The position numbers and the translations under genes are program-made. Shown here in pieces: positions 528 through 28,693 of a DNA stretch of 64,000 bases. Numbering within the stretch: position 1 is the first letter of the stretch; each line of letters begins with the position of its first letter. Under the pieces are notes generated by a model, which ran no database searches, had not been told where the DNA came from, and was given only the letters and a program-made list of their open reading frames with translations. The DNA is from Candidatus Uhrbacteria bacterium (GTDB lineage: Bacteria > Patescibacteriota > Patescibacteriia > JACQRZ01), in contig JACQSC010000002.1 in assembly GCA_016206155.1 (NCBI GenBank), positions 143,473-207,472 of the forward strand, given 5' to 3'.

Positions 528-573
528 GTAAATCCTTGTTCTACGTTATCCCCTCCTATTTCCTTTCATGTCG

Positions 574-582
574 TGGTATACT
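574..582 (+). promoter_or_regulatory. extended -10 element (TGgTATACT) upstream of the giant repeat-protein gene
   Basis: Sequence tcgTGgTATACTaac lies about 25 nt upstream of the ATG at 608. The -35 is weak (tcctat). Confidence 0.3.
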
Positions 583-607
583 AACAGCAAGAGATATATT
601 TCTCCCC

Positions 608-3600
608 ATGAGTATGCTACATGAACCATATTCCTCATCACGAGGGAAGAGCGCGTATCTGTTGAGCGCGCTGTTTGTCGTCCTTGTCGGGACGGCTTTT
701 TTGATTGTGCCAAATGGCGCGTATGCCATAAGTGCGGCTCCAACCCTTCCCGCACCTGTTTCCGGCGCCCCCAAAGCCCTTCCAGCAGATCACCTTCTTG
801 ATGTATTGAATAAGCAGACGTCAACACGAGCCGCATCAGACGCCTCCGCGTTTTCCGGCACCGTCAAGATTGGCGGGGCGACACAAGCCGCTAAAGGCAT
901 ACTTGAAATTGGCGACGTTGGAGTTACGCACGATGCGTTTCTCCTCAGTGTCGCAAGTGGCATTGCATCTACGGGCGTGGGCGCTAACAATCGCAAGGCA
1001 TTGGTGCTCCAAGGTGGTCCGACGCCAAAAATATCGGCGTACGATTATGTCGCTCGAGCTGGAATGAAACTGACCATAAACCCCGACAACAGTGATGTTG
1101 TCATTGTTCCCGGTGGCGGCAGAGTAGGCATTGGGACCATACCAACCGCAAGCAGTGTCGGACTGCTTCAAATTGCGAAAACGAACGATCGTTATTCAGG
1201 CATTACATTTAATGATTCACGTTTGCGTTTGGGATCGGATCCGAATGGAAACGGTGCGATATTTGCTCAAGGTGGTGGTGCAATACTTGAAGTTGGCGCT
1301 CAAGGGTATATTTCGTTTACCACGGGAGCTATCGCTGGACACGCTACCGAAAAAATGCGTATTAATGAAGCCGGCAACGTCGGGATTGGGACGACAGAGC
1401 CAGGCGCCGCGTTAGAGGTTAAGCGCACCGTCGGCAATGGCAATGCTGAAATCTTTGCTAATTACAATGGAACAAATATTGGCAGGTTAAATGCAGCCTC
1501 AAATGGAAATGTTTATATGGGTGTATCTAGTGGGACTGGCGATTTAGCAATTGGCGTCAATGATAATGTTACCGCTTTGAATATTTTAGGCAAAGTCATC
1601 AAACGCGAAGATAACGTTGAAGTTGGCAGCATCGGCAACGTAGGCATCGGGATAGCGAAACCACTGGCAAAGCTTCATATTGAGGGACAGAGTACTTGGG
1701 GTGGGCTTACGATAAAAAATAAAAATAATTGGTACACCCATTTTAATTATCCTGACGACAAAAATTATATTCGCGGCACTACTATCATCGCCGATAACGA
1801 CGCCAACGTCAAAGTCGGCATCGGGACGTCAAGCCCTGGTTATAAACTGGAAGTAAATGGTGATATTCGTACTGGCGCTGGAGGTGACATTCGTTTAGGT
1901 CCCGCTAACTCTGGAACTGATGCGATATTATACTCCGACAACGGGGAATTAAGCTTTTACACCAATAAGGACAGGAGAATGGTCCTTGATACTTCAGGGA
2001 GACTTGGCATTGGGACGCCAGAACCAGAAAATAAGCTTGAAATTAGTGGAAATAATCAAGCCATTGCACTAACAACCGGTGGTGGAGAAAAGAATAATCT
2101 ATACGGAGGGAGATGGCGCGTACATGATACAGGTAATGGCGTGTATACAAGTTTTGATACAAAAAATGTCAATAGCTGGACAAATGATAGGCTTACCATT
2201 TTATCGAGCAATGGCAACGTCGGCATCGGGACTACCGCGCCCGTTGTCGCTGGAGGAGGTTTTACTGGAATAGATATACGTGGGACTAATGGTTCCAGTG
2301 TAGTACTCGGAAAATCAGGAGGATCACCCACTTTTCTTTACAGTGATAGTTCATATTTGAATTTTGAGACCCCGGGCGTTATTGCATTTCGTCCTGGAGG
2401 CTCAGAAAAGATGATAATAACAAGCGATGGCAAAGTCGGGATTGGGACGACAACGCCAGAATCAAAATTGCATATTCAAAATGTTCTTGAGGGAAATCCG
2501 GCAGACAAATCGCTCTTCTCAATCTATGATCTCCACAACCAGGGTAGAAACGGTCAATATTTCAGAATACTTGGAGGGACAAGGGGGATTAATCTTATAT
2601 CGAACTGGACTAGTTTGAGTTTCGGTGCGAGATATGATGCGGGAGGTGAATTTAAGCAGGATCTTACGATCGACACGAATGGCAAAGTCGGGATTGGGAC
2701 AACGAGTCCGAGAGTAAAACTTGAGGTTGCTGGCAGTGTTTCGACAGGACTGCTGGCTCCTAGAAATACGTACCTTGCGGATACATATCCGACATTTAGT
2801 GGATGGTCAAACACTCAAACTTCAACATGTGGGACATGGGAGATGCTTGGAGGATTTGAAATTCTTGGAGGAAGAGACTATGTAAGAAAAACAATACCAA
2901 ATTTGCCTGCCGGAGATTATATTGTTGAGTTTGATTTTTATAAAATTGATAGCTGGGATGGTGAACTGGCGATTTTTATGTGGAATGATGATCGTAAATG
3001 GAGCAGGAAGTATTATTCATCAGAGGGAACACAAATCTGTGGCCAGCAACATAACAATTGGAATGAGGATAAAGCTCATGTAGCAGTGGAAGTAAATCAA
3101 ACAGAGACTGGAAATGCTACATTACACTTTGGCGCAACGCTTGACAGTCATGCTGGGGATGAGTCATGGGGAGTGAATAATATAGTGGTGTATAAGAAAG
3201 GAAGCACGACAACTCTAGCCGCGATAGGAGATTTGAAAGTCAACGGCAACGTCGGGATTGGGACGAGTGATCCTTGGGCAAAGCTCCACATCGAGGGACG
3301 GGATAAGTGGGGTGGGCTTGCGATTGTGAATGCGAATACTCATGTCACCCATTTTAATTATCCTGACGGCAAAAATTATATTCGCGGCACTACTATCATC
3401 GCCGATGACGGCGGCAACGTCGGGATCGGCACTACGAGCCCGCATTCCGAACGAAAACTCCATGTCATGGGAACTGAAAGGATAGAAACGGCAGCCGATG
3501 CATGGAATTGGCTCGAAATTGCGCGAGGTGACGACACGATCTATTTTGGAAGCGACGTTACTAATCGCGGAATTTGGTCAAACGGTAGACGTGGCGTTGG

Positions 3601-5323
3601 TATTTATACTAATAGCTACAATAGACTTTATGTAAGGGGTGATACTGGCAACGTCGGCATCGGGACGACAGTTCCGAACCAAAAATTGGAAGTAAAAGCC
3701 GGCGATGGTACGAACAGTTTGATTTATGGTCTGAAATTGGAAAATGTTGGTGCCCAAGATGACGGTAATGGAGTTGCAACCGGCATACTGTTTGGAGTAA
3801 GTAGTAGCGCTGACTCTAACCGCGGGAAAGGCGGTTTGGTCTATGCTTATCCACCTAGCGGAGGGACATGGAATAGGGGCGACTTTTATTTCTTACAGAA
3901 CACTGATGAAACTTCTGCTGTTGCAGGCTTGTCAGACGCAGTCATGACCATAAAAAACAACGGCAACGTCGGGATTGGGACAGACCCATCAAGTCCTTTC
4001 CATATACTGAACTCATCTGGTGACATGATGAGGATTCAGAATTCTGGAGGGGGTGAAGCCGACATTCGATATCTTACGGGCAGTAGTAGTTGGGAGGTGG
4101 GCACGAACAATGTTGGCAACGGGACAGACAAAAATCAATTTTATATCTATGATGCAAGCGGCGTTCCTAATCCCTATGCATTTACCGTGCAGCGTGGAAC
4201 TGGCAACGTCGGCATTGGGATGACCCCCCTAACAGAAAAATTGGAGGTCGCAGGTTCGATCAAAGCAAACGATCACATTGAATCGCGCTGGACTAGTGTT
4301 GTAGATACCGCCTATAACGCAAACCCACGTACCTATTATACAAGCAGAAATATGACAATGCGGACGGGCCTTAATGAGCAATACGAACTTGGTGAAATTG
4401 CTGTAACGTCACAACATCCTCTTGCATTTTATGCCAATGGTTATGAGCATATGCGCATCACCGTGGATGGCAAAGTCGGGATTGGGACGGCAGATCCGAA
4501 AGAAGGTCTTGATGTTTATGGTAAACGCACTGTCCTTCGAGGAGGATTATATGTCGGCGGAAATGACAATTTTAATTGGATTTCTGGATTTTTTAGTAAG
4601 CCGCTTGCATTCTTTGTCCGCGATAATAGTGGAGCATTTTCAGAAAAAATGAGAATTTTGCAGAACGGTTACGTCGGGATTGGAACGGATGAACCAAAAA
4701 CAAAACTTGATGTTCAGGGTGGGGATATCAACGTTGGGTATCTCGGAGAAAAAAAGAAATTCGCTGATTTGTCAAAACATGAAAAATTGGCGTTTGAAAC
4801 CGATCGTGTCGGGCTCGATGTTGCAGAGCTTTTTGAATCAGAAGAAACCGTTGAGGTCGGAGATTTGTTAGTGGTATCAGCGACAAACGAACGTAAACTC
4901 AAAAAATCATCCCATTCCTACCAAGACACGATTGTCGGCGTTGTGTCCGGTTCGCCCGCGCTTCTTTTTGAGGGCAGTGAGTTAAAGCTTGGGGCAAAAC
5001 CGAATAGATTTGAAAAAGGCGAAAAGCCCCCTGTTGCGCTTGCCGGCCGCATTCCGGTAAAAGTGTCTCTTGAAAACGGTACGATCAAGCCCGGTGATTA
5101 TCTTACCACGTCCAGCAAACCGGGCGTTGCCATGAAGGCAACCGAACCCGGCATGACAATAGGCGTTGCGCTTGAGAGTTATGACGGCGAGGGCGATGGG
5201 AAAATTTTGGTTTTTCTCAATCTTGGTGAAAAGAACACAAGCAGTGTTATCAAAGAGCTTCAAGGGCTTCTCAAATCCCTTGAACGCCGCATCCGGATGA
5301 TGGAATACAAACCCCGATGGTAA
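608..5323 (+). CDS. giant secreted repeat protein, tail-fibre-like (about 1570 aa), with 13 or more G-N-V-G-I-G-T-x-x-P-x-x-K-L-x-V repeats
   Basis: The track ORF 536..5323 is used, with the start moved to M25 (608, MSMLHEPY...). The next 40 aa look like a signal peptide (SAYLLSALFVVLVGTAFLIVPNGAYA). The repeated 'NGNVGIGTTSPxxKLEV' motif is the one I recognise from proteins annotated tail-fibre-domain-containing in phages and bacteria. The C-terminal ~150 aa form a separate beta-rich domain (IVGVVSGSPALL...IKPGDYLTTSSKPGVAMKA...GVALE). A jelly-roll or lectin-like insert sits at about aa 730-900. Confidence 0.8.
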   Translation: MSMLHEPYSSSRGKSAYLLSALFVVLVGTAFLIVPNGAYAISAAPTLPAPVSGAPKALPADHLLDVLNKQTSTRAASDASAFSGTVKIGGATQAAKGILEIGDVGVTHDAFLLSVASGIASTGVGANNRKALVLQGGPTPKISAYDYVARAGMKLTINPDNSDVVIVPGGGRVGIGTIPTASSVGLLQIAKTNDRYSGITFNDSRLRLGSDPNGNGAIFAQGGGAILEVGAQGYISFTTGAIAGHATEKMRINEAGNVGIGTTEPGAALEVKRTVGNGNAEIFANYNGTNIGRLNAASNGNVYMGVSSGTGDLAIGVNDNVTALNILGKVIKREDNVEVGSIGNVGIGIAKPLAKLHIEGQSTWGGLTIKNKNNWYTHFNYPDDKNYIRGTTIIADNDANVKVGIGTSSPGYKLEVNGDIRTGAGGDIRLGPANSGTDAILYSDNGELSFYTNKDRRMVLDTSGRLGIGTPEPENKLEISGNNQAIALTTGGGEKNNLYGGRWRVHDTGNGVYTSFDTKNVNSWTNDRLTILSSNGNVGIGTTAPVVAGGGFTGIDIRGTNGSSVVLGKSGGSPTFLYSDSSYLNFETPGVIAFRPGGSEKMIITSDGKVGIGTTTPESKLHIQNVLEGNPADKSLFSIYDLHNQGRNGQYFRILGGTRGINLISNWTSLSFGARYDAGGEFKQDLTIDTNGKVGIGTTSPRVKLEVAGSVSTGLLAPRNTYLADTYPTFSGWSNTQTSTCGTWEMLGGFEILGGRDYVRKTIPNLPAGDYIVEFDFYKIDSWDGELAIFMWNDDRKWSRKYYSSEGTQICGQQHNNWNEDKAHVAVEVNQTETGNATLHFGATLDSHAGDESWGVNNIVVYKKGSTTTLAAIGDLKVNGNVGIGTSDPWAKLHIEGRDKWGGLAIVNANTHVTHFNYPDGKNYIRGTTIIADDGGNVGIGTTSPHSERKLHVMGTERIETAADAWNWLEIARGDDTIYFGSDVTNRGIWSNGRRGVGIYTNSYNRLYVRGDTGNVGIGTTVPNQKLEVKAGDGTNSLIYGLKLENVGAQDDGNGVATGILFGVSSSADSNRGKGGLVYAYPPSGGTWNRGDFYFLQNTDETSAVAGLSDAVMTIKNNGNVGIGTDPSSPFHILNSSGDMMRIQNSGGGEADIRYLTGSSSWEVGTNNVGNGTDKNQFYIYDASGVPNPYAFTVQRGTGNVGIGMTPLTEKLEVAGSIKANDHIESRWTSVVDTAYNANPRTYYTSRNMTMRTGLNEQYELGEIAVTSQHPLAFYANGYEHMRITVDGKVGIGTADPKEGLDVYGKRTVLRGGLYVGGNDNFNWISGFFSKPLAFFVRDNSGAFSEKMRILQNGYVGIGTDEPKTKLDVQGGDINVGYLGEKKKFADLSKHEKLAFETDRVGLDVAELFESEETVEVGDLLVVSATNERKLKKSSHSYQDTIVGVVSGSPALLFEGSELKLGAKPNRFEKGEKPPVALAGRIPVKVSLENGTIKPGDYLTTSSKPGVAMKATEPGMTIGVALESYDGEGDGKILVFLNLGEKNTSSVIKELQGLLKSLERRIRMMEYKPRW

Positions 5324-5343: not shown

Positions 5344-7362
5344 ATGAATATAAAGGTAAAATCAGGGGCTGTTTTTTTGGTTGCGGTTATTTTTGGACTG
5401 TTTGCATTTGGAACTCACGATGCAAATGCGGCATCCTATTGCATTTCGAATGACTGCAGACCCATTCCGCCGCCAAGTCAAAAAAAATATGTTGCACCAT
5501 ATAATGTTTTTGATACAGAAAACAAATACTGCGCTAATAAGGGAAAAAACTGCACCCCTGTTTGGCCGATTAGTTCATATAGGAAGTCGATTGATAGTGT
5601 AGGATATTGTACGAAATATAAATGTGTTTCTCCATGGCTGACAACTATAGAATTAGCGAACATTCAGAAGCAGACAGACGGATACAGCGCATGGCTTGAA
5701 GCAGTTTTTTTTACGCAAGGGGAAGTAACGAACATATCATGGGGTGTGGAGAAGGCGGGAGAGTCCGAAAAAAAGTGCGAGGAACGTCGCGTAAGTTTTA
5801 TCCGATCAAAAGATGTGCCATGCGGCTGGAGAAATTCTTCTACGAGTGTAGAAAGATTGGATAAAGATTCTCAAATGTATAGCGCCAAATTCAGAAATTA
5901 TTATTCGAAAGATCCCAAAAAATGTGATTTCCGCGTAACCGGACCACAAGGATTTCCATCTGAATTTGGCTTTTGTCTAACACAAACACTTCCGCCGCCG
6001 CCCGTAATAAATTATTTTACGATCAACGGTTTGCCGGATATTGCATTTGTGCCAAGAGGGAAACGATTTACAGTAGCATGGAATATTTTTGGGGCAACAT
6101 CAATATCTATCGAACCATTAACACTGGAGGGTTTAGCACAACAAGTTGATAATGCTGGAAATTTAGATGCAGGACATTGGATGAACAAGGCGCTACGCCA
6201 AAATTGGTTAGTTTCAACGAGCTGGAAAAATGATATTGCAAAACTTACAGGAGGAGGCGAATTCGGCTTATCGGCCCAAGCTCATACGAGGTATCGTTTG
6301 ACAGCCTCTAATCCTGGCGGTAAAACAGTAAAAGACGTTATTATTAATGTGCCAAGAAATAGTTATGGTAAATGGTTTCGAGCACTACCTCCGCAGGGGA
6401 TAAAATATGTACTTCCTGACGGCACAATTGACTATGCAGTTAAGTATCTGGAGGAGTATTACGTAACGGACACTAAGCGTTCGTATGGTGTTACAAATTA
6501 TGTTCCCCCTAATGCAAAGGATATTGGCCGCTTTGATTTTATGGATTCAAAAGAGTACGTTAAGGCACGTGACTCTGTCATACGCGGCGATAAAATCAAT
6601 GCTAGCGGCACTCGTATTAGTTCACAAGAAGAATTTGAAAAAATATTCGGACCACCACCATGTCTTGGCGGAAAAACATATGATATATCAGATACTGAAA
6701 CCAGCGGTTTGTTCGGTCCTCGTTATTTAACACCCACGTTCTGGTGTTCAAATGAAAATGATGGTATGTGTGTAGACTATGGACCCGATTGCGATGGAGT
6801 TGACTTACAAGCAGAATGGGATAAAGCTCCAAACGGTATAACTTTCAGGTGCACGTTGGCTGGATTAAAAGCACGGATAGCTACGTGTGTCGGTGAGCAT
6901 GAACGTAAGATTACCTATCTTACACAAGGAAGATATCATAGTAAAGCAGGAATATCGGTAATACAACAATTCTTTACTACACTTTTATTGGCACAATTAT
7001 TTGGAAGTAATGCCAGTAACGCTAGCGTACAGTCATCAAACCTTCCAGCTTCAATGTTAAATTTGCGGTGCCCAACCTGTGATATTGTTAAAAAAGAAGG
7101 TTTTAGTCCTCAGGGAAGCCTTATTCTTGGGCAGGGTGGCGTGCACCAAGATGCAAACGAATTAATGAAACGTATTGGAGAAAAGGAGGCGCGAGATGTA
7201 GGAGTACATTCAGTGAGAGGTTTAAATTTCAACGCAGTTGCTCTTAATAAGGAACCTTTGTCATATAATACGTCTGATTGGATTATGAGTGCGTGCGGAG
7301 CTGATACAGCATGCCAAGATTTTGCAGCGGCAAATGCATATAGGCCAAGGACTTCATGGTGA
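5344..7362 (+). CDS. secreted cysteine-rich protein (672 aa)
   Basis: N-terminal signal peptide MNIKVKSGAVFLVAVIFGLFAFGTHDANA followed by CISNDC. About 30 Cys in total, a poly-Pro linker, and an Ig-like middle section. Lies 21 nt after the preceding gene. Confidence 0.75.
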   Translation: MNIKVKSGAVFLVAVIFGLFAFGTHDANAASYCISNDCRPIPPPSQKKYVAPYNVFDTENKYCANKGKNCTPVWPISSYRKSIDSVGYCTKYKCVSPWLTTIELANIQKQTDGYSAWLEAVFFTQGEVTNISWGVEKAGESEKKCEERRVSFIRSKDVPCGWRNSSTSVERLDKDSQMYSAKFRNYYSKDPKKCDFRVTGPQGFPSEFGFCLTQTLPPPPVINYFTINGLPDIAFVPRGKRFTVAWNIFGATSISIEPLTLEGLAQQVDNAGNLDAGHWMNKALRQNWLVSTSWKNDIAKLTGGGEFGLSAQAHTRYRLTASNPGGKTVKDVIINVPRNSYGKWFRALPPQGIKYVLPDGTIDYAVKYLEEYYVTDTKRSYGVTNYVPPNAKDIGRFDFMDSKEYVKARDSVIRGDKINASGTRISSQEEFEKIFGPPPCLGGKTYDISDTETSGLFGPRYLTPTFWCSNENDGMCVDYGPDCDGVDLQAEWDKAPNGITFRCTLAGLKARIATCVGEHERKITYLTQGRYHSKAGISVIQQFFTTLLLAQLFGSNASNASVQSSNLPASMLNLRCPTCDIVKKEGFSPQGSLILGQGGVHQDANELMKRIGEKEARDVGVHSVRGLNFNAVALNKEPLSYNTSDWIMSACGADTACQDFAAANAYRPRTSW

Positions 7363-7392
7363 TAGTACAATAATATATTTATTTATTCATGT

Positions 7393-7890
7393 ATGATTCT
7401 ATCAGCTAGCGGTTTTATAAAAAAATTATTTAGAATACTCGTTTTACTTGGAATTTTTTGTATCGGATTTATTGGCGGGTATTATTATAATGCTAATGAT
7501 ACGAAGCGGATCGTTTCGGATATGCAAGAAAGAATTATAGACGGATCAGAGATCGCGAAAGTTCAAGGATATCAAGTGGAAGATTTTTATGGAAAAATAA
7601 AAGAATTAAATGGCAGTATTTTATGGGTAAGAAAGATCGTTGGACCAGACGCAGAAACGCAAGATATTATTGAAGTTGGCATTTCCCCTCGCACAGAGCT
7701 TATTGCAATGAAGTATCAAAATGTAAAAGATATTTCTAAACAATTCCTCAAAAGCGATGGGAACATTGGTGAACTAAAAGAGAACATATACGTACGGGTT
7801 TATTACCGCGTAACGGATGCGAATAGTACTGAAAAAGTCGAAGCCCAAACGATATATTATTCAGATAAAAATCCCTTTCTTTTCCAGTAA
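7393..7890 (+). CDS. small membrane-anchored protein (165 aa)
   Basis: N-terminal TM helix (ILVLLGIFCIGFIGGYYY). Tightly packed between neighbouring genes. Confidence 0.55.
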   Translation: MILSASGFIKKLFRILVLLGIFCIGFIGGYYYNANDTKRIVSDMQERIIDGSEIAKVQGYQVEDFYGKIKELNGSILWVRKIVGPDAETQDIIEVGISPRTELIAMKYQNVKDISKQFLKSDGNIGELKENIYVRVYYRVTDANSTEKVEAQTIYYSDKNPFLFQ

Positions 7891-7910
7891 AGCATTGTTT
7901 GCCGTTGTAT

Positions 7911-9683
7911 ATGACACGAGAACAAGAGGACGCGCGTGAAAAATATGCAAATCGTGGAGAATATAATACAGGGTATGTGCGTCAGAGACTGCGCGCGTAC
8001 ATAGCCTCACTTATTGTTTTTTTTTCTCAAGCGCAAGAAGTATCAGCTAAAATAGAATATCAGTTTGATAAACAACAAGGTTCATACGAACTTATTTATC
8101 AAGAAAATGAATCTGAGCGGCCTGTTCATTTTTTGCCAGTTCCAATTGCAGCGATCGGCGAACATGAAAACGGAGAGCGCATACGCCTTCCGTTTTTTGA
8201 TCGATTAAGAAAAATAGACATTACAGAAGGAGGGGTAAATTACTCAATAAAAGATCCGATTGCATTTCGTAATTTTATTGAAAATGAGCTTGACCGCTAT
8301 GTGCGAGCGCTTAACATACATGGAGATATTAAGCCGCAAGATCTTATACAGATAACGGCATTGATAACTAAAAATAATATGCTTCCAACGTCTGATGAGC
8401 GTCTTTTAGATAGCATTAATCATACTCCGTTGGATGAATTACTGATGGGCGTAAAACGCGGTGTTTGCCGTCATTACGCCGCCGCTTTTGAAACGGTGGC
8501 AGAAACTATCATTGAAATCACTCAATCAAAATATCTGCAGAACATTATTGTTGATGAAGTAGGTATGGCCGATGTAAATCATGCATGGAACGTTGTTTAC
8601 CATTTGACTCAAAATAACGGGGCGCATTTTATCAATATGGGATTTATTGATACGACAATCAAGCCACACGGGACATTTTCCGATCTGGGCGAAATCGAAA
8701 AAAGACAAGGCGATGTAAAAAATTTTAGAACCATCTATCTTAATCAATTATATTATGCAGTAAACCCTGAAGATAGAATTGCTGTTGTTCGAGATTCAGT
8801 GCTCTTGGCGGAAAACGAAAAAGAAAAGCTGCAGTACGTGACAGAGCTTGCCTTTACTTTTTTATCGCAAGTTAAAGAACTGTATCAACGGAAAGAAAAT
8901 GGCAAAGCGAGACAAGTATTTGAGGAGGCGGATAAGTATTTTAACAAATGGTACGAACAGTATTCAAAAGACGACACAGCGCTTCAGCATGTGCAGTTTA
9001 TTCGGACAATAATGATATCCATCTATTCTGTTGTGGCAGATAATACGCCTGATGCAGAAGGCAAGGTATCTGTTTACAAACGCGCATTGTTATGGAGCGA
9101 TATATTTAATTATGCTTTGGCGGATGCATATCTAAAAAGCGGCAATCAAGATGAGGCGCGGGCTATTTACGTTGGGATGCTTGAAAACATAAACGACAGC
9201 AGAGTGTTTGAAAAGGTATTTGGATTTTTCAATAAACTCAATGAAAGTGAAAATGTTGAAAAAACATTGAGCGCATACAAAAAATATCTTGAAAAAAGAC
9301 CAGTATCAGAGCAAGCATTCGGTTTTACTATACTTGCCGACGCATATGAGGTATTGGGAAATATTGAACAAAAACTATTATATTTAAAAAAAGCATTTTT
9401 CTGCGACGATGAACGAGCCGAAAGGAGGATGGAGAGAGGGGAACGATACGCTGATTCTGTTCTCGCGCAGGGAGATGCGATAACTGCCAGGAAAATATAT
9501 GATGAAATGTTTAAAATCTATAAAAAAGCAAAAAAGGACGGAAAGATAACCATTCCTTTCAAGCGTCAGATGCCCGGTAAAGGTTTTGTGGAAGTTTTTG
9601 CCGAGGAAGATGTATATAAAGAATATCTAAAGGAGAAACTGGGACAGCCACCGTTTTTACACATTAACGAAGCGGAGAACTAA
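7911..9683 (+). CDS. transglutaminase-like cysteine peptidase superfamily protein with alpha-helical (TPR-like) C-terminal region (paralog A)
   Basis: The track ORF starts at TTG 7899, and the first ATG is at 7911. The motif G-V-C-R-H-Y-A-A-A-F...H-A-W-N-V-V fits the transglutaminase-like core Cys...His arrangement. A signal-like segment (LRAYIASLIVFFSQAQEVSA) follows the start. The last 11 codons lie inside the 190-bp direct repeat described below. Confidence 0.65.
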   Translation: MTREQEDAREKYANRGEYNTGYVRQRLRAYIASLIVFFSQAQEVSAKIEYQFDKQQGSYELIYQENESERPVHFLPVPIAAIGEHENGERIRLPFFDRLRKIDITEGGVNYSIKDPIAFRNFIENELDRYVRALNIHGDIKPQDLIQITALITKNNMLPTSDERLLDSINHTPLDELLMGVKRGVCRHYAAAFETVAETIIEITQSKYLQNIIVDEVGMADVNHAWNVVYHLTQNNGAHFINMGFIDTTIKPHGTFSDLGEIEKRQGDVKNFRTIYLNQLYYAVNPEDRIAVVRDSVLLAENEKEKLQYVTELAFTFLSQVKELYQRKENGKARQVFEEADKYFNKWYEQYSKDDTALQHVQFIRTIMISIYSVVADNTPDAEGKVSVYKRALLWSDIFNYALADAYLKSGNQDEARAIYVGMLENINDSRVFEKVFGFFNKLNESENVEKTLSAYKKYLEKRPVSEQAFGFTILADAYEVLGNIEQKLLYLKKAFFCDDERAERRMERGERYADSVLAQGDAITARKIYDEMFKIYKKAKKDGKITIPFKRQMPGKGFVEVFAEEDVYKEYLKEKLGQPPFLHINEAEN

Positions 9684-9838
9684 TTCATATTATACACAGA
9701 GTTTTTGGGACATAACCGCATATTTTATTTTATCGCGCAAGAGATCTTATGAAGATCCGTATTTATATTTTCATTCCCATTTTTTTCCTGATTATAGTAA
9801 ATAGTGTAGAGGCAACAATCTGTATTAACGGTGATTGT
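9649..9838 (+). repeat. 190-bp direct repeat, copy 1 (about 99% identical to 17797..17986)
   Basis: Compared directly: caccgtttttacacattaacgaagcggagaactaattcat...atctgtattaacggtgattgt. Only 2 mismatches. Confidence 0.9.
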
Positions 9839-9868
9839 ATTAACGGTGTCAGGAATAGTTTTTATTGA
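9749..9868 (+). pseudogene. truncated 5' fragment (39 codons) of the PA14 secreted-protein gene
   Basis: MKIRIYIFIPIFFLIIVNSVEATICINGDC is identical to the N-terminus of the gene at 17897. It is then broken at an attaacggtg microhomology and stops at 9868. Confidence 0.75.
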
Positions 9869-9891
9869 ACGCAGATTGAGGTGGTAATTTT

Positions 9892-12800
9892 ATGTCATTC
9901 CGCTCAAAGCGAGGAATCCCTCGTTTCACCATATTACGAATAACGCCAAAGACCACGTTTGGTTTCCTGGCGTTGTTTTTTATTGGTATTGTCATCCTAT
10001 CTTTTTTTGTTATCGGCACGGCTGCGTCCGCGGCATCGTTTTGTTTTAATAGCAAAACTCCACAAGAGCAATGTTACCCCAACCTTAAATTCATTGGTAC
10101 GGTCGGGACACGACCGGTAAAGAACACGTATCTCAAAAAGCTAGAGCCGCCAAAAAGTGATTATTGGGGGGACACACAAAGGCATTGGCCAACCTCAAAC
10201 CTTGGGGACGCAACTAAAGATCGTTACTGCAATAACAGTAAATGGGGCGGGGGAACTACAAATCAAACGTGCATTTCCCGCGCCGGCTTGGAAACTGCAA
10301 TGCCGCGACTCGAGATTGTCAATCGTGGGGCAGATAGCTCCTTGGAAAATTTTCCGATGACCCTGCGCGTCCGAGGCCAGACGAAGAAGTACTGGTATTT
10401 TCCCGCCTATTACAGTATTCTTCCTTTTAAAAACCCATATACAGGTGAAGATAAGATATACCAGTATGATGTTCGCCCCGATCTCAGCTATAATTTTAAA
10501 GACCTGAAAGGACGCAAATGTCCCTGCGCTCCAGCGACACCACCAATACTTGATGATCAATGGGGACAAGGAGATGGTTATTATACTTACCACGGCGCTC
10601 CCTTTTTTAAAGAGGAAAAAAACGGTTTCCGGAAGTGCAATTTTTTGTCAGACAAACGCGACTACTATCCTGTAGATGTGTCCGGATGGAGTCACCGCAC
10701 ATGGGAGGAGACAGAAGATCCAAACGATTGTTATTTTGAAATTGCGAGTTCATCAAACGTACCCGGTGCAAATAAAAAATTTTATTATCGTGTCAAAAAA
10801 ATTCCCGTTATTCATCTTGAAGAAATTTTCCATAATGATACGAACGCTTTTCGTAATTATGAATATTCGGTAAAACAAGAGTCAGTGGCACGAAACGAGT
10901 ATGAAAGAGTAAAGACCGAAGAAATTGAAACGCCAAAACTGATAAACAAATGGCGTATTTATTATCGATATGACTATGGAAAGGAACGGATAGATTTAGA
11001 AACAGATAATTTTGGGAAGATCGTCGCGGCACGTTATGGCAATCAAACACCTGCTGAATGCCCTTGTTCTAAAAACGGAAAAATATGTATTGTTGGAGAT
11101 GTAGTTCCATGGGATGTCTATTCTTGTTATGAAAAATATAAAGATTGGAATAAACCATGGTCACAGTTAGCGGAAGAAGATAAAAGAAAAGATCGTAGAG
11201 TGCAATCAGCAAGGAAGAGCTACTTTAAAGCCTTCGGAGAATTGCAGAAAGATTCTGGAGAATTGTTAGAACAAAATAGAGTCGCAAATATCGCGAGAGA
11301 GAAGGGGGAATACTATCCATACAAAGTATATGAACCAGGGGTCGATCCGCCAGTAAATTCCTTTGATTTTATATCCACGTATGATGGTCAATTGCTACCA
11401 ACGGCAAAACAAGCATATAAGGTAAAAAATGAACAGGAGATCTGGAATAGAAATGCGTTGAACTTTGGCTACGGTGCCATAGTAGACTTAAGGTATACGC
11501 CTACGAATTGCAATATTAACGGCCATTTCGATAACATCGAAATTGGTTGGGACAATAAAGGCAGATATACGGATTATACGCTCACGATGCACGGAAATCC
11601 CAGAAATAAGATTAGTGATATAAAGAAGAGTGCAGAAGCTAGACGTATTCAGGCAGTCGCGGTCCCGACGCAGTTAAGTCTTAGTGGCGCAGAATGTAGA
11701 CTGCAAATGACCCCTCATCTTTTTGACTTTCCTGTGACATACTATTTTTCAACAGGGGACGTGGACATGCCACCGATAAGGATTCAATCATTTAAGGTTT
11801 CCGTCGAAGGAAAAACATCCAATCCGTTAGGGGAATGCAGCGCAGACAATTACACAAAATGTCTCCCGAAAGAAAAACTGCCAAGCGGCATGGAAAGTAG
11901 TGAGGCGTTTTTTACCGATGGTCGTACTCCTTTACGTTCGAAAAGAAGCGCACCAGCCAATACAACACTTGAGATTGAAACAAAAGAGAAAGAAACATTT
12001 GCCAATGTAAACTGGAATGTCACCGGAATGGATGATGTAAATGGAATTGTGGTTACGGTGGTGAAACATACACAAGACATAAATCATAGAGTTTACGATA
12101 TCGCCAACGTTGTTCAGGGGGGGACAGGAAGTTATACATCTCAACTTAAACCTGGAGACTGTAAAACAGAAAATAATAAACAAACATGTTCATGGAATAC
12201 CTATTCATTTTTTCTTACTGCGGTCAACGACCGCGCAGTAACAGATTCCGATAGATTAAAATATAATGAAGATAACATACAATACGTTTGGGCCGCTTCG
12301 CAAAAGATTGATGTAAAAGTAAAAAAAGAGGAATTGGCTATTCCTAAGTTTAGCGTTAAGAAATCCACTGGGAAGAAAGATTCCGCGGACTTAGAATGGA
12401 AAACAACAGGCGCGGAATTTATTAGGATAGAGATGCAGTATTCGTGGGGCAGGAAGAAGTCATATCCTCAGGGTGATAAGTGGGAAGACGGAACATGGAG
12501 CAAAGATACGAACGGCTCTGTGACGATTAATGGCATCGATACAAGAGATACGGTGTTTACCCTGTTCGCCCAAGACAACGAGGGCAATACCATCACATCA
12601 AACACAGAAAAGCTTGGTGATCCAAAGGAAGTGAACATCATCGATGTTGTTATTAATGGTCTGGGACTTCGAAATAGGCTTCTGAATAGATCACTCTATG
12701 AAATTATTACTGATTCTGATTGTCCCGACATTCCCATTGTCGGAGATATTTGTAGAGCGTTATCATTCAACAATATTTGGAGAACAGTTGGAGGTCTTGT

Positions 12801-14223
12801 AACAAAGGTTATCCCAGGTCTTGGTGATTTAGTGGGAATGTTCCTTAATTTCTTGAAGGAACCGGTGGTCGCAATTTTTGGGGTTATTATGGAGATTGTT
12901 GACAATTTTGTGATTCAAAAGAATACCGTGAAGGGTGCGGCAGAAAGCATCAATGAATTCATTGGCGGCTTCTTGAGAGAGTTTATTCCAAATTTTATCG
13001 CTGGCGCCGCCGAAGGGGTATTTAATAAGTTGATGGGTGATTGTGTTGGTTCAAAAATGGGTGGATGGATCAACATTGGAGTGCAAGCGCTGTATTCAGG
13101 AGTTGGGGGATTATTGCAGTTGATTGGAAAAATTCCGCTTCTTGGTGGTGTGGGTAAGATTGGTGAAAGTATGACGTCAGCATGTCCTGTCGAAAACTCC
13201 GGATGTACGATTGGGATTTGCGCGGGACAAGACACAGGTAAAGAAATAGGAAAAACCGTGCTTGAGGATGTTATCTCCGGGCTCCTTCCGTTTGTGCCTG
13301 TTACAGGAGCGCTTGATAGCGCCAAGAAGTTTATCGAACCTATGGCGACAACAATTTTCCCTGAGTGTAAAAATACCGTTCCCAAAGAACGTCAAGATAC
13401 AGATGCGTACGCCTGTATAAGTGGTTCTTGTCAGAAAGCTGAGAGAAAAGTTGAAATTTGCGGACTTGAAGGTGGAGGTGGTGGAGCGTATCCAAACAAG
13501 GCAGCCTGTCTAGCGTCGTGTGGCATACCACCGGTTACGACAGAAGTGAAGTATTATTATAAATGCAACGATCCAAGCACGCTTACATGTGATAAACAGG
13601 AAGAGAAAACAGAGTATGAGGGAGACGCTGGACTGTATGCATGTAATTTGACATGTAAGGAAAAGAAATTTGATGAGCCGACTAAAGACTATTTTAAATG
13701 CATAAATAAGAACGAAGGTCAATGTAGAAAAGTGGAAGAAAGTACCACTTATGTGGGTCTTATAGGAAAAGCAGCGTGTGACATTACGTGTAAGAAAACA
13801 GGAGTTGGTTGTGGATGTCCTAAACATCCCGAGTATCTTACCACATCTGAAATTGGCAAGAATCCTTTAAATAGAAAGAGAGCGATTGCAAATGTTTTGA
13901 TGACAACCGTCTACGTTTCGACCGGTGGTGTATTTTGTGTACGACGGGATGCCGCATATAATTGCGCGGAAATACTAGATAAGGCAGGCAAAGCTGACGA
14001 CCTTATAAAACTGGGGCGAGACAATAATTGGGATGTGTCCCAGAAGAAAGAAAGCATTGATCGTAGTGTATTTACCGGACTGTACGAAAAAGCAAAGCTA
14101 GTTCCTGGATGCGCTGCCTTTATAGCTATTGATAGCATTAAAAATTTTAAATTGCCTCTTTGCGAACAGGAAATAACTAATGCACGGTGCGAGGCAATTA
14201 CCTCTGAAGATGACTGCAGATAG
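9892..14223 (+). CDS. giant secreted or membrane-anchored cysteine-rich protein (1443 aa) with a glycine-zipper hydrophobic segment and three tandem about 40-aa Cys-rich repeats
   Basis: N-terminal TM/signal segment (FGFLALFFIGIVILSFFVIGTAASAASF). About 70 Cys in total. Residues around 930-1110 are Gly/Ala/Ile-rich with GxxxG runs (GVGGLLQLIGKIPLLGGVGKIG). Three 'K-Y-[YF]-K-C...C...E-x-T-x-Y-x-G...A-C...C' repeats sit near the C-terminus. Confidence 0.8.
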   Translation: MSFRSKRGIPRFTILRITPKTTFGFLALFFIGIVILSFFVIGTAASAASFCFNSKTPQEQCYPNLKFIGTVGTRPVKNTYLKKLEPPKSDYWGDTQRHWPTSNLGDATKDRYCNNSKWGGGTTNQTCISRAGLETAMPRLEIVNRGADSSLENFPMTLRVRGQTKKYWYFPAYYSILPFKNPYTGEDKIYQYDVRPDLSYNFKDLKGRKCPCAPATPPILDDQWGQGDGYYTYHGAPFFKEEKNGFRKCNFLSDKRDYYPVDVSGWSHRTWEETEDPNDCYFEIASSSNVPGANKKFYYRVKKIPVIHLEEIFHNDTNAFRNYEYSVKQESVARNEYERVKTEEIETPKLINKWRIYYRYDYGKERIDLETDNFGKIVAARYGNQTPAECPCSKNGKICIVGDVVPWDVYSCYEKYKDWNKPWSQLAEEDKRKDRRVQSARKSYFKAFGELQKDSGELLEQNRVANIAREKGEYYPYKVYEPGVDPPVNSFDFISTYDGQLLPTAKQAYKVKNEQEIWNRNALNFGYGAIVDLRYTPTNCNINGHFDNIEIGWDNKGRYTDYTLTMHGNPRNKISDIKKSAEARRIQAVAVPTQLSLSGAECRLQMTPHLFDFPVTYYFSTGDVDMPPIRIQSFKVSVEGKTSNPLGECSADNYTKCLPKEKLPSGMESSEAFFTDGRTPLRSKRSAPANTTLEIETKEKETFANVNWNVTGMDDVNGIVVTVVKHTQDINHRVYDIANVVQGGTGSYTSQLKPGDCKTENNKQTCSWNTYSFFLTAVNDRAVTDSDRLKYNEDNIQYVWAASQKIDVKVKKEELAIPKFSVKKSTGKKDSADLEWKTTGAEFIRIEMQYSWGRKKSYPQGDKWEDGTWSKDTNGSVTINGIDTRDTVFTLFAQDNEGNTITSNTEKLGDPKEVNIIDVVINGLGLRNRLLNRSLYEIITDSDCPDIPIVGDICRALSFNNIWRTVGGLVTKVIPGLGDLVGMFLNFLKEPVVAIFGVIMEIVDNFVIQKNTVKGAAESINEFIGGFLREFIPNFIAGAAEGVFNKLMGDCVGSKMGGWINIGVQALYSGVGGLLQLIGKIPLLGGVGKIGESMTSACPVENSGCTIGICAGQDTGKEIGKTVLEDVISGLLPFVPVTGALDSAKKFIEPMATTIFPECKNTVPKERQDTDAYACISGSCQKAERKVEICGLEGGGGGAYPNKAACLASCGIPPVTTEVKYYYKCNDPSTLTCDKQEEKTEYEGDAGLYACNLTCKEKKFDEPTKDYFKCINKNEGQCRKVEESTTYVGLIGKAACDITCKKTGVGCGCPKHPEYLTTSEIGKNPLNRKRAIANVLMTTVYVSTGGVFCVRRDAAYNCAEILDKAGKADDLIKLGRDNNWDVSQKKESIDRSVFTGLYEKAKLVPGCAAFIAIDSIKNFKLPLCEQEITNARCEAITSEDDCR

Positions 14224-14240
14224 ACAGAAAGGTTTTTATT

Positions 14241-15392
14241 ATGTTAAACGAACGCGCACATAAAGAGTTGCTACCGGCAGAGCGGTATGAAAAATTTATC
14301 CTCCCCCTTGCGTTTGTATGCGGTATGTCTCTGCCTCCTGAAGCTCGCGCTGCAGAGCCGCACGCACGCGAATCGTTGCAGCCGCTTACCGCAGAACAGC
14401 TTAAAGAAGTCCGTGAATTAGAAAAAACATCTCCGCTTGCAAAAGCAATTGATGCTGTGCCCGATTCCTTAATGAGAGAAGAAGGATATGATGGGGATAT
14501 TTTGTCACGCAAAGAGCGGGCGAAGTCCCAAATCCCGATCTTGTACGATGTAAGATGGAAGGTTGGTCCGGGTGAAAAGCCGTTGTCACAACGATATCCG
14601 CTTATTAATGTAGAGATATTTACTAACGGCGCTTTTATCTATTTCAATATTCCTGATGATGCGCGATTGCACAAGTTGGGCATCACGCGAGAGGAGATGG
14701 AAGTTGTTGCATCAGAAATTAAAGAGTCAACAACGATCCTGACCGATATGCCCGCGCACCGAGTTAGTCAGCCGAAAGATTCTAACCTTATTGTTTTTTT
14801 TAGTGACAATCCTCAAGAATCCTCAAGCATTAGAGACGGAAGGGCTGTTGGTCATACTCTGTATACAGTAGGTGTGCCAATCTCGTTTTTTCCATTGGGA
14901 ACTGTATACCCAATAGAATTTATTGAGCCTGGCAGTAATGGAGGTGTTTATATTCCACTGGAATCTTATAATGATAAAATTGAAAAAATGTTATCAGGTA
15001 AGAATCTTCATGAAAAAACTCGTGAATTAATATATGATATTACGCGGCACGCATACTTCAAGGAGTTGATTTATACAGCAGAGCATGAAATATGCCATTT
15101 TCTCGGTTACGGTCATAGCAACAATAAGAAGCATATTACTTATGGCGGGCCGGGCGTGGTGAGCTCGGGTACCGTCGTATCTCTCGGAAAAAGATCTGGA
15201 AAAAAACCAGTAATTCCCGAAGGCGCTTCTCTATATACTGATAAAATGGGAAATGATTATTATTTTTTATCTGCATGGGGTGACATTCGAAAATCTCCAG
15301 TCGTTGATCTGAATTTTTTTCTACGGATATTTGCGAAACAGAATAAGGAGCGAAAACTTATGGAAGAGCGCAATCAGCAGCATATGGAGTAA
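14241..15392 (+). CDS. putative zinc metallopeptidase with metzincin-type HEICHFLGYGH motif (383 aa)
   Basis: Matches the HExxHxxGxxH consensus exactly. RBS gaaagg lies 8 nt upstream. The gene starts 18 nt after the giant gene. The N-terminal region is hydrophobic. Confidence 0.6.
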   Translation: MLNERAHKELLPAERYEKFILPLAFVCGMSLPPEARAAEPHARESLQPLTAEQLKEVRELEKTSPLAKAIDAVPDSLMREEGYDGDILSRKERAKSQIPILYDVRWKVGPGEKPLSQRYPLINVEIFTNGAFIYFNIPDDARLHKLGITREEMEVVASEIKESTTILTDMPAHRVSQPKDSNLIVFFSDNPQESSSIRDGRAVGHTLYTVGVPISFFPLGTVYPIEFIEPGSNGGVYIPLESYNDKIEKMLSGKNLHEKTRELIYDITRHAYFKELIYTAEHEICHFLGYGHSNNKKHITYGGPGVVSSGTVVSLGKRSGKKPVIPEGASLYTDKMGNDYYFLSAWGDIRKSPVVDLNFFLRIFAKQNKERKLMEERNQQHME

Positions 15393-15697
15393 TAACGCAC
15401 GAGAAAAAGGATGCGGGAAAGCTGTGCAAAAAACGGTGTCAGGAATGGTTTATTGCAAAAACTCCTACTTATAGGCATAGATAGGAGCATGGGTAGGGGG
15501 ATAGGAATCATTTTATGTGTGGTATGATTTTCGTATGCTTCGACCACACAGAACAGATGTCGGAGATGTCGTGTATCACTTATCAATCTTGCGAACGCTC
15601 GATTGGGCAAAAACGTGACCATGGGCCGTTTTTGAAATCAAATGTCTTGACAACGATACCGTATACCTGTATTGTATAGTTACATACAATTATCACT

Positions 15698-16021
15698 ATG
15701 AAGCTTGGATTTAGCGCTATATCAATTGAGGGGTTTGATTGGGATACGGGGAACAGTGAAAAGAATTGGATAAAGCATCACGTCAGAAAGAATGAATGCG
15801 AGGAGGTTTTTTTCAATAAGCCGTTAAGAATTTTTGATGATCAGGTATATTCCAAGACTGAGAAACGTTTTGGGGCCCTCGGAAGAACGGATAGAGGAAG
15901 ACGGCTCACTATTATATTCACTATACGAAAAAAAATGATTCGGGTCATTTCTGCACGAGAACAAGGTCGGCACGATCGAAAAATTTATGAAGCAGTCGAG
16001 CAAAACTATTACCAATCATAA
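15698..16021 (+). CDS. brnT: BrnT-family (DUF497) toxin
   Basis: FDWDTGNSEKNWIKHHV...EVFF...RTDRGRRLTIIFTIRKKMIRVISAREQGRHDRKIY matches the BrnT pattern (FEWD..K...N..KHGV, R.ISAR). It lies immediately upstream of a small RHH gene. Confidence 0.7.
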   Translation: MKLGFSAISIEGFDWDTGNSEKNWIKHHVRKNECEEVFFNKPLRIFDDQVYSKTEKRFGALGRTDRGRRLTIIFTIRKKMIRVISAREQGRHDRKIYEAVEQNYYQS

Positions 16022-16036
16022 TCAGGACGCACCTTT

Positions 16037-16327
16037 ATGAAAGAAGGGACAAGGAGAAAAATCAAAATGCTTCCATCGTTCCGCAGTGAGGATGAGGAGC
16101 GGGAGTATTGGGATAGCCATGAATTGAGCGATGTGTTCGACGTAACACATGGCACTGATATGACATTTCCCAACCTCAGGCCATCAACGAAAAACATTAC
16201 GATCCGCGTGCCCGAATCCATGCTTTTTGCCCTGAAGGGTATTGCACGAAAAAAAGATGTGCCATATCAGTCACTTGCAAAAGTGTATCTTGACGAAAAA
16301 ATTCATGAGGAGTATTTCGTGAAATGA
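16037..16327 (+). CDS. brnA: BrnA-family antitoxin (ribbon-helix-helix)
   Basis: PNLRPSTKNITIRVPESMLFALKGIARKKDVPYQSLAKVYLDEKI matches the BrnA consensus (FPNLKPSTK.ISIRLP...DVPYQSLIK). Alternative start at M11 (16067). Confidence 0.65.
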   Translation: MKEGTRRKIKMLPSFRSEDEEREYWDSHELSDVFDVTHGTDMTFPNLRPSTKNITIRVPESMLFALKGIARKKDVPYQSLAKVYLDEKIHEEYFVK

Positions 16328-16513
16328 AATAACTTCGCTTAGTGTCACGGAAAATTGGGGAAAATTGGTGTCAGAAAATTGGTGTCAAGTCCGCATTTTC
16401 GCATTTGGAAAATGGATTCACTACGACAAGTTAAACCATATACTTTCCAGCCGCTTTTTACCGCGTCGAAGTAACGTTTTCTGCCCGCCACTTTTATCAT
16501 GAGGCAAAAAAGG

Positions 16514-16541
16514 TTGACACAATTTTTAACCATGGTAGAAT
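16514..16541 (+). promoter_or_regulatory. sigma70-like promoter (TTGACA-16 nt-TAGAAT) for the ATPase gene
   Basis: Sequence ttgacacaatttttaaccatggtagaat. The same element is present in the decayed copy at about 22266. Confidence 0.5.
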
Positions 16542-16569
16542 ATTGTAGTAATACATTTTTTGTCAACTT

Positions 16570-17751: not shown

Positions 17752-17772
17752 GGAGGGAAAACGGTGAAGGAG

Positions 17773-17796
17773 AAACGGTGACTGTCACCGTTTTTA
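17773..17796 (+). terminator. rho-independent terminator (aaacggtgactgtcaccgttttt)
   Basis: Perfect 8-bp stem with loop ctgt followed by a T-run. Lies 22 nt after the ATPase stop. Confidence 0.65.
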
Positions 17797-17986
17797 CACC
17801 GTTTTTACACATTAACGAAGCGGAGAACTAATTCATATCATACACAGAGTTTCTGGGACATAACCGCATATTTTATTTTATCGCGCAAGAGATCTTATGA
17901 AGATCCGTATTTATATTTTCATTCCCATTTTTTTCCTGATTATAGTAAATAGTGTAGAGGCAACAATCTGTATTAACGGTGATTGT
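17797..17986 (+). repeat. 190-bp direct repeat, copy 2
   Basis: See 9649..9838. Here it spans the terminator-proximal spacer, the RBS and the first 30 codons of the PA14 gene. Confidence 0.9.
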
Positions 17987-20599: not shown

Positions 20600-20606
20600 G
20601 TCGTCT

Positions 20607-22494: not shown

Positions 22495-22588
22495 TTCCTG
22501 TCACCGTTTTTTTGCCGTTTTTTTGTGAACTAGCGTTGAAAATTCCGATGTGGTATAGTAATAATTGAATCAGGTTGATGCAATTATT

Positions 22589-24280: not shown

Positions 24281-24339
24281 GACTTTAAACTTTCAATTTT
24301 ATACTTTCGAAAAGAACAAGAACAAAGAAGGAACAGGGA

Positions 24340-25398: not shown

Positions 25399-25432
25399 CG
25401 TAATCCGTAATCCGTAACTTGTAACTTGTTCT

Positions 25433-27746: not shown

Positions 27747-27756
27747 TTTCAAATTT

Positions 27757-28320: not shown

Positions 28321-28324
28321 CGGT

Positions 28325-28693
28325 GTGTCGCTCCTGATTGTTATTGTTATTCTGGGATCGGCTTTGCTTATAATATCCGCCGGCGCGCTTCTGGTTGGGC
28401 TTTCGGAGCGAGAGAGCGGCTTTGTCGCCGGTCTCGGAGGTGAGGCGCGCGCGTTGGCCGACGGATGCATGGATGAAGCATACTTGCGCATGGAGCGTGA
28501 TGCGTCCTGGGGACTCACGAGCGTGGTCCTCTTCACAGCGCCGAATGGTTCATGTAGTATTGAGGTCAGCGATCTTGGCGGGAATACCAGACGTATTGAT
28601 ATTGTCGCAACTCGCGATGCATATACATCACATATCCGTTCAACCTACGTGATTGGCGGCGGGATATCCGAGTGGGAAGAACGCACCGACTAA
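28325..28693 (+). CDS. putative pseudopilin-like protein (about 123 aa, GTG start)
   Basis: The track ORF 28244 overlaps the previous gene. An in-frame GTG at 28325 gives VSLLIVIVILGSALLIISAGALLVG, a pilin-like N-terminal helix. Confidence 0.4.
   Translation: MSLLIVIVILGSALLIISAGALLVGLSERESGFVAGLGGEARALADGCMDEAYLRMERDASWGLTSVVLFTAPNGSCSIEVSDLGGNTRRIDIVATRDAYTSHIRSTYVIGGGISEWEERTD

Follow-up and report, generated by a model that had tools for sequence, protein, structure and literature searches.

Gene organisation and host

The stretch of DNA described here comprises 64,000 nucleotides of contig JACQSC010000002.1 from Candidatus Uhrbacteria bacterium (the whole of this stretch is called the window), and our subject is a gene near its beginning that encodes a very long, repetitive, fibre-like protein. 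An uninterrupted open reading frame (ORF) runs on the + strand from a TTG at 536 to 5323. Three starts come into question, namely ATG 608 (1571 aa), TTG 536 (1595 aa) and ATG 614 (1569 aa), and residues are numbered throughout from ATG 608 as aa 1. The NCBI annotation uses ATG 614 and calls the product hypothetical protein HY623_01350 of Candidatus Uhrbacteria bacterium (100% identity; P0001 among the proteins compared), located on a contig of 244,926 bp. An earlier interpretation made from the letters alone, referred to below as the sequence-only reading, had given a length of 1595 aa together with position 608; the length is that of the TTG 536 start, and the position corresponds to 1571 aa. 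The organism, which it had taken for a reduced and probably host-attached bacterium, is a Patescibacterium of the Parcubacteria group, Candidatus Uhrbacteria. Antisense ORFs within the fibre gene are short (at most 111 aa) and none stands out, and a scan for promoters and terminators gave a number of sites not above chance. The gene and its parts are as follows.

608..5323, + strand: fibre gene, 1571 aa plus stop from ATG 608
608..727, + strand: signal peptide or signal anchor, aa 1-40, with a basic n-region, a hydrophobic core and A-Y-A before I41
728..1084, + strand: N-terminal region before the first repeat, aa 41-159, with an HLL(D/E)VL motif
1085..2749, + strand: shaft part 1, aa 160-714, with eight repeat cores GxVGIGT..P..KL.V, putative triple-beta-helix modules
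2750..3208, + strand: inserted beta-sandwich module, aa 715-867 (153 aa), with the motifs GWS, C..MLGG, IDSWDGE, CG and DESWGV
3209..4816, + strand: shaft part 2, aa 868-1403, with seven repeat cores
4817..5221, + strand: phi29 gp12-like (Peptidase_G2) beta-rich domain, aa 1404-1538, beginning D1404-V-A-E1407
5234..5320, + strand: amphipathic helix and basic tail, aa 1543-1571, the helix being aa 1543-1566 and the end ..YKPRW

Repeat shaft

The repeat shaft accounts for about 1090 residues of the protein. The pattern [VL]G[IVL]G[TIM] occurs in 15 copies, with the consensus GNVGIGT..P..KL...G, and the 13 or more copies counted in the sequence-only reading are thus confirmed; shuffling the protein 2000 times gave 0.145 copies on average and never more than 2. 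The copies are irregularly spaced, at 56-105 aa, with 188 aa spanning the insert. The motif core is conserved in the DNA too, and the repeat core was found nowhere else in the window in any frame. An internal duplication was also identified, in which aa 880-959 (nt 3245-3484) copy aa 343-423 (nt 1634-1876), with 155 nt at 81% identity.

The likeness to phage tail fibres that had been recognised from the letters alone is borne out by two PHROGs tail-fibre families, 9942 (E=4.6e-57) and 18345 (E=2.5e-42), and by tblastn matches, at 23-30% identity, to annotated tail-fibre genes in 22 isolated phages with Synechococcus, Pelagibacter and Thermus hosts. Profile searches, which the sequence-only reading had proposed as a check, gave a divided answer, as the scan of the whole protein against Pfam and NCBIfam returned 0 matches even at E<=1. 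Among solved structures, phmmer matched the Bdellovibrio fibre Bd2133 (8OND, E=1.9e-9) and 8OJN (E=1e-3). Both alignments centre on VGI(G/N)T..P..KLxV loops, and the match to 8OND lies in its trimeric beta-helix region. Because of this loop match to the mosaic adhesive trimer (MAT) fibres of Bdellovibrio, the shaft repeat is read as the capping-loop module of a triple beta-helix fibre, and the fibre protein would by analogy be a trimer. The crystal structure of Bd2133 extends over 150 Å for 370 aa (PMC10769870); scaled from these values, the shaft would be about 40-55 nm long.

C-terminal domain and terminal helix

The beta-rich domain at the C-terminus, which had already been distinguished from the repeats in the sequence-only reading, is indeed a separate domain and is followed by a helix. 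It shares 49-73% identity with eight of its top matches and 31-46% with five more distant aligned proteins. A profile of 14 copies matches the C-terminal fragment of phi29 gp12 (3GQH) at E=1.5e-3, and the alignment begins at residue 1 of the chain, the first residue after cleavage (DFAEYFE in gp12 versus DVAELFE here). D1404-x-A-E1407 is thereby aligned with D692-F-A-E695 of gp12, whose mature form, gp12*, ends at residue 691. The D, A and E of this motif are invariant in the 14 relatives, and the position in front of the D varies among L, F, M, P, I, S and Y. When the last 200 aa were scanned alone, the Pfam family Peptidase_G2 (PF11962) was matched at E=1.6e-5, with 24.9 bits versus a cut-off of 25, and nine of the 14 relatives match this family as well. 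With an AlphaFold model of the domain (predicted local distance difference test, pLDDT, 78.6), a Foldseek search against the PDB placed 3gqh_A at rank 1 (E=2.7e-4) and 3suc at rank 3 (4.4e-4); rank 2 and the ranks under 3suc were taken by trimeric phage cement or decoration proteins. The C-terminal domain is a homologue of the phi29 gp12/Peptidase_G2-type autochaperone.

By analogy with gp12, the protein is likely, though not certain, to cleave itself in front of D1404. We take the DxAE residues of gp12 to be catalytic; no statement on the catalytic residues of gp12 was found in the open-access papers that were searched.

An S74 chaperone, for which the sequence-only reading had suggested a search, was ruled out, as PF13884 has no match at E<=1 and the sole SDxxxK (aa 887) sits in a shaft loop; a G2-type homologue stands in its place. 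The relatives P0012 and P0017 do match PF13884, and in P0012 the G2-like domain is followed by more repeats and then by the S74 domain.

It is a real possibility, short of probable, that the gp12-like domain of a surface fibre stays uncut and forms a permanent trimeric knob at the distal tip, akin to phage decoration or cement proteins. Proteins of this kind (Pam3, Sf11, XM1, T1 and the base of phi29 gp8.5) match the model almost as well as gp12 does, and weak matches to Pfam cement families were obtained. The variable residue before the D would also suit a domain that is not cut, as would the internal position of the domain in many more distant cellular relatives, with S74 after it in P0012. 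A permanent knob is argued against by the invariance of D-x-A-E, by a domain boundary that coincides with the gp12 cleavage site, and by the terminal position of the domain in phages and in the closest relatives, which is the layout of a disposable chaperone. Since it is internal in relatives, and stands before repeats and S74 in P0012, the G2-like domain is read as a trimerisation module in any case.

The helix that follows, with its basic residues and terminal Trp (KPRW, RFRW, YYW, PLW or TYW), is conserved in six of the nine closest aligned relatives and is absent from phage versions of the domain. It is possible that it forms a trimeric coiled coil or the nucleus of one, or it could be a sorting signal.

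Mid-shaft insert

Between the two parts of the shaft lies a module that would occupy aa 739-891 if counted from TTG 536. It contains C741 and C811, the only cysteines of the fibre protein, which are likely to form a disulphide. The AlphaFold model of the insert is a beta-sandwich with pLDDT 94.2, and the closest solved folds are a porphyran-binding carbohydrate-binding module (CBM; 1.4e-5), followed by CBM6, CBM35, CBM4 and CBM22, with template modelling (TM) scores of 0.44-0.58. A jelly-roll or lectin-like insert of about 170 aa had been placed at aa ~730-900 in the sequence-only reading; such an insert is real, with 153 aa and a jelly-roll fold at pLDDT 94, and its likeness to CBMs is one of fold only. 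By sequence it belongs to no Pfam family and to no CAZy-type CBM family, and neither the insert sequence nor a profile of it found a meaningful match among the sequences of the PDB. A word-index search with the insert returned 0 matches, missing even the fibre protein itself.

An exhaustive phmmer search with the insert retrieved 847 representative clusters at E<=1e-3, from bacteria and others, which together form a family that has no Pfam model; 202 of the clusters reach E<=1e-10. Copies are often arranged in tandem; a single protein can hold as many as 11 of them, and the longest of the proteins reaches 7122 aa. Conserved positions of the family include GWS, C-G, M/L-GG, IDSWD-E, a second C-G and DESWG, and its domain partners include LamG, DUF2341, fibrinogen-C, C-type lectin, SUEL lectin and PAN. 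The best viral models matching the insert include a 'putative membrane protein' of Emiliania huxleyi virus 86 (EhV; Q4A2U1) and unnamed entries, with TM-scores of 0.79-0.87 and 23-35% identity, values that indicate true homology of the insert to the EhV proteins. The insert thus exposes a large, unnamed family of extracellular modules common to bacteria and coccolithoviruses, which merits a name and a structure. In view of the CBM-like fold and the lectin-type domain partners, it is reasonable to regard the modelled insert as a putative lateral, lectin-like knob.

N-terminal segment

Residues 16-34 form the sole strongly hydrophobic stretch of the fibre protein, with a mean Kyte-Doolittle value of 2.53 over 19 aa as compared with 1.23 for the next best 19-mer. 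R12 and K14 precede this core, A-Y-A follows it before I41, and close relatives have an N-terminus of a similar, signal-like kind. Judged by its sequence, the segment could be a Sec signal peptide or else a signal anchor; the signal peptide named in the sequence-only reading is supported by hydropathy as a signal-like segment. For the region that follows, aa 41-159, conservation in the closest relatives is weak (29-35% identity), and used as the query of a word-index search it matched one further protein. It is presumed to be the cell-proximal end of the fibre.

Distribution of relatives and chromosomal context

Among GTDB species-representative genomes, 534 loci encode a G2-like domain, and the best 80 of these were read for taxonomy. 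Named Patescibacteria lineages account for 49 of the 80, and metagenome-assembled genomes (MAGs) of Gammaproteobacteria or Pseudomonadales account for 22. The remainder belong to Omnitrophota, Elusimicrobia, Acetothermia, Planctomycetales, Thermotogae, Pseudobdellovibrionaceae or Woesearchaeota, or carry no phylum name, and several genomes among the 80 loci hold two copies each. The closest relatives of the fibre gene are chromosomal and occur in Uhrbacteria and other Patescibacteria. At loci with at least 49% identity, the G2-like domain is terminal and preceded by 4-12 repeat cores in eight of nine cases. MAGs labelled 'uncultured Gammaproteobacteria' (L004, L012, L015, L031, L050 and L062) contain relatives of the C-terminal domain with up to 72% identity; the Gammaproteobacteria labels are doubtful because some of the chromosomes, including complete ones, measure only 0.9-1.6 Mb.

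The neighbours of the fibre gene and most other large ORFs of the window were scanned with Pfam and PHROGs. No gene for a capsid, portal, terminase, tube, sheath or integrase was found in the window, in agreement with the lack of capsid, terminase, portal and tail-tube genes reported from the letters alone, and neither tRNA genes nor Rfam features were found there. Two faint PHROG matches were obtained among the neighbours, one to a virion structural protein (2.7e-5) and one to a tape measure protein (8e-4). At the loci of three relatives the neighbours are dnaK/grpE/dnaJ, priA/def or toxin-antitoxin genes, again with no phage structural genes, and the linkage of the fibre gene to the type IV pilus cluster is not conserved in these three loci.

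It is very improbable that the fibre gene is the tail-fibre gene of a prophage or of a decayed prophage remnant. In favour of such an origin, every module has viral relatives, the GC content of the gene, at 44-47%, is below the value of about 50% seen among the housekeeping genes of the window, and the two faint PHROG matches fall in neighbouring genes. Apart from the lack of structural, packaging, integrase and tRNA genes in the 64 kb, the signal-like N-terminus speaks against it, being needless for the fibres of virions that assemble in the cytoplasm, and orthologues whose C-termini are 49-73% identical occupy differing chromosomal neighbourhoods. The viral relatives themselves also stand at a distance. 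Viral contigs gave 99 matches to the G2-like domain, only 30-41% identical to that of the fibre protein; in the 80 that were read, the domain begins Y(A/S)D(L/M)AE in most and lies at most 60 aa from the C-terminus in 79, and at least three GxVGIGT cores are present in just one of the 80 proteins. The preference of the sequence-only reading for a cellular fibre over a prophage remnant is thus upheld by a chromosomal context devoid of phage structural genes, both here and at the three relatives' loci.

Proposed function of the fibre

We consider it probable, at roughly 60%, that the fibre gene encodes a secreted, cell-attached, homotrimeric fibre adhesin that is phage-derived and composed of three kinds of module that occur in viruses too. 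Such a protein would be exported by the Sec pathway by means of its N-terminal signal segment, and either the N-terminal region, some 120 aa long, or a signal anchor that is not cleaved would stay at the cell envelope. After emergence of the C-terminus, the terminal helices and G2-type domains of three chains would associate and would serve as an intramolecular chaperone, bringing the chains into register and templating the folding of the triple beta-helix shaft, in which a GxVGIGT..P..KL capping loop would delimit each of some 15 modules. The chaperone could then cut itself off before D1404, as in phi29 gp12. Each chain would carry one disulphide-stabilised, CBM-like beta-sandwich projecting sideways from the middle of the shaft, so that a trimer would display three lectin-like knobs, and these may bind a glycan on another cell (presumably the host of the Patescibacterium) or on a surface. 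A role in cell attachment is suggested by this build, and judging from the sequence it is reasonable to view the fibre as a candidate means by which such cells hold on to surfaces or to one another's kind or other cells.

From the anatomy of the sequence, its homologies and its chromosomal context, which are established, we infer that the protein is exported, forms trimers, is cleaved and binds a glycan, and what its biological target would be, and the inferential standing of trimerisation, cleavage and binding is the first of several points that weigh against the adhesin. A motif scan of the whole fibre protein found neither a lipobox nor LPxTG, leaving it without an anchoring motif of these kinds. 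The insert resembles CBMs in fold only and points to no ligand. At the C-terminus, the Peptidase_G2 score falls 0.1 bit below the cut-off and is seen only when the domain is scanned alone, and the TM-scores with gp12 are moderate (0.44-0.53) and nearly equalled by those of phage cement and decoration proteins. The G2-like domain has an internal position in most relatives at greater distance, where 100-600 aa follow it, and therefore need not be a released chaperone. Finally, the phi29 chaperone requires ATP for its release, and a protein outside the cell has none at its disposal.

A fibre of the envelope or matrix that plays no part in host attachment (for example a spacer, a spike associated with the S-layer, a fibre for biofilms or for binding particles, or a phage decoy) is in our view unlikely. 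The want of a ligand indicated by the sequence would suit such a fibre, as would the position of the gene in a general surface-protein island (five same-strand genes at 5344-15392, at least some of whose products have signal- or transmembrane-like N-termini, and a PA14 protein) and the closeness to type IV pilus genes that relatives do not share. It is argued against by the MAT fibres, the only characterised cellular homologues, which are surface-displayed, with glycan binding and effects on predation (PMC10769870), and by the combination of lectin-like lateral domains with a scaffold of the phage receptor-binding type, which fits cell recognition.

If the fibre is an adhesin, it would add to the means by which Patescibacteria attach to partner cells, those known being type IV pili and a few Saccharibacteria adhesins (PMC11665869). 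No papers tying tail-fibre-like proteins to Patescibacteria were found among the open-access papers that were searched. The fibre gene, located in the chromosome of an organism described as an ultra-small, groundwater-type bacterium, is a concrete candidate for partner-cell attachment, joining a phage-style fibre with a lectin-like module. Its significance may reach beyond one organism, as relatives of the G2-like domain are present in hundreds of genomes and Patescibacteria make up most of the best matches, and the MAT concept would come to cover one more lifestyle, unrelated to the first, and another class of C-terminal chaperone, with G2 in place of S74. We also put forward, tentatively and with considerable doubt, that Patescibacteria (the candidate phyla radiation, CPR) have domesticated the toolkit of phage receptor-binding fibres, in which capping-loop triple-beta-helix shafts are combined with G2- or S74-type C-terminal chaperones that cleave themselves and with lectin-like modules that can be exchanged. 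Secreted fibres, in small families of paralogues, would then decide which host cells are recognised by these epibionts. If this were true, CPR bacteria would encode their host range in much the way that phages do, and it could be read from their fibre genes.

Neighbouring genes

Other features around the fibre gene are as follows.

195-527, - strand: small DUF6922-family gene, divergent, 80 nt upstream of the fibre gene start
5344-7362, + strand: 672-aa secreted-type protein directly after the fibre gene
7899-9683, + strand: ORF whose product has TPR repeats
9892-14223, + strand: 1443-aa protein with no Pfam family
16570-17751, + strand: AAA_14/DUF4143 ATPase
17897-20599, + strand: 900-aa protein with a C-terminal PA14 domain, just upstream of the pilus cluster
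20511-22163, + strand: paralogue of the ORF at 7899-9683
22565-30341: type IV pilus cluster with a PilB-like ATPase, PilC, N-methyl pilins and PilM

The five genes downstream of the fibre gene lie on the same strand with gaps of 8-208 nt, and the 672-aa and 1443-aa products among them have signal- or transmembrane-like N-termini. The protein encoded directly after the fibre gene has positional counterparts at three related loci (L001 4635-7358, L002 16512-18626 and L003 10559-12880). At all four loci a secreted protein of 670-910 aa follows the fibre gene after 8-37 nt and has cysteines soon after its hydrophobic N-terminus. BLASTP found no similarity between the 672-aa protein and the three counterparts, and hhalign gave a weak match (34% probability, E=4e-4). 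It may be a fast-evolving partner or anchor of the fibre.

The paralogous ORFs at 7899-9683 and 20511-22163 share 29% identity over 207 aa, and in L002 and L003 homologues lie within a few genes of the fibre gene. By eye, the 7899-9683 product shows a Cys...His...Asp pattern (GVCRHYAA ... NHAWNVV ... FIDTT) that recalls transglutaminase-like proteases, a call that Pfam does not make. The 1443-aa protein has a hydrophobic N-terminal segment, a Gly-rich hydrophobic stretch at aa ~900-1080, on which the tape-measure PHROG match (8e-4) falls, and Cys-rich repeats of about 40 aa near its C-terminus. L003 has a homologue of the AAA_14/DUF4143 ATPase at a comparable distance (16826-18058; 24% identity), flanked there by RelB/YafQ-type toxin-antitoxin genes.

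The PA14 gene, the pilus cluster and the fibre operon make up a surface-structure island of about 30 kb. Also downstream are genes for PBP2, class II aminoacyl-tRNA synthetases (SerRS and ThrRS included), two GT4 glycosyltransferases, DnaE, a radical-SAM enzyme and GyrB. The GC content is 38-44% at 6001-22000, among the unknown secreted proteins, and 48-53% at 24001-50000, in the housekeeping part, the fibre gene being at 44-47%; this contrast may reflect a foreign origin or a distinct composition of surface-protein genes.

Comparison with known systems

The closest parallel is found in Bdellovibrio bacteriovorus, which has 21 MAT fibres, Bd2133 and Bd3182 among them (Caulton et al. 2024, PMC10769870). 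In these fibres a signal peptide is followed by a conserved beta-rich N-domain (about 130 aa) and by trimeric beta-helix modules that intertwine and are delimited by capping loops with the motif V-G-(x)-G/N-x-x-x-P-x-x-x-L; they end in an S74 chaperone in 13 cases and in other tip domains in 8 (PMC10769870). They are displayed at the surface; one has been found to bind glycans of the cell wall, and predation on E. coli slows when two others are deleted (PMC10769870). The Uhrbacterium fibre is like them in its chromosomal gene, in its capping-loop shaft VG(I)(G/N)xxxPxxxL with a direct sequence match, in its chimeric build with swappable binding domains and in the presence of more than one copy in some related genomes. 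The N-domain of MAT fibres and the region of about 120 aa behind the signal-like segment are likened by layout only. The Uhrbacterium fibre differs in coming from another phylum and envelope type, in ending with a G2-type domain and a helix where MAT fibres have S74 or a permanent tip, and in carrying its putative binding module in the middle of the shaft and not at the tip.

With phi29 gp12 (3GQH, 3SUC; PF11962) it shares a terminal beta-rich domain that begins with D-(F/V)-A-E where gp12 is cleaved. That protein is a cytoplasmically assembled tailspike with a right-handed beta-helix enzyme body, whereas the Uhrbacterium protein is a repeat fibre with a signal-like N-terminus and an extra C-terminal helix, and the Foldseek alignments of the two have 16-19% identity. 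Tail fibres of cyanophages and pelagiphages (S-CRES2, S-SM2, S-TIM5 and HTVC168P) resemble it in the repeat shaft, over up to 72% of the query; unlike phage tail fibres and S74 (PF13884) proteins, it has no S74 domain, and it has a signal-like N-terminus and housekeeping neighbours. The insert has the beta-sandwich fold of CBMs of the galactose-binding-like jelly-roll type, and unlike these it is not a member of a named family by sequence. Cellular phage-like fibre adhesins are thus already known from Bdellovibrio (PMC10769870), and what is new here is the different phylum, the different class of chaperone and the putative binding module in the middle of the shaft.

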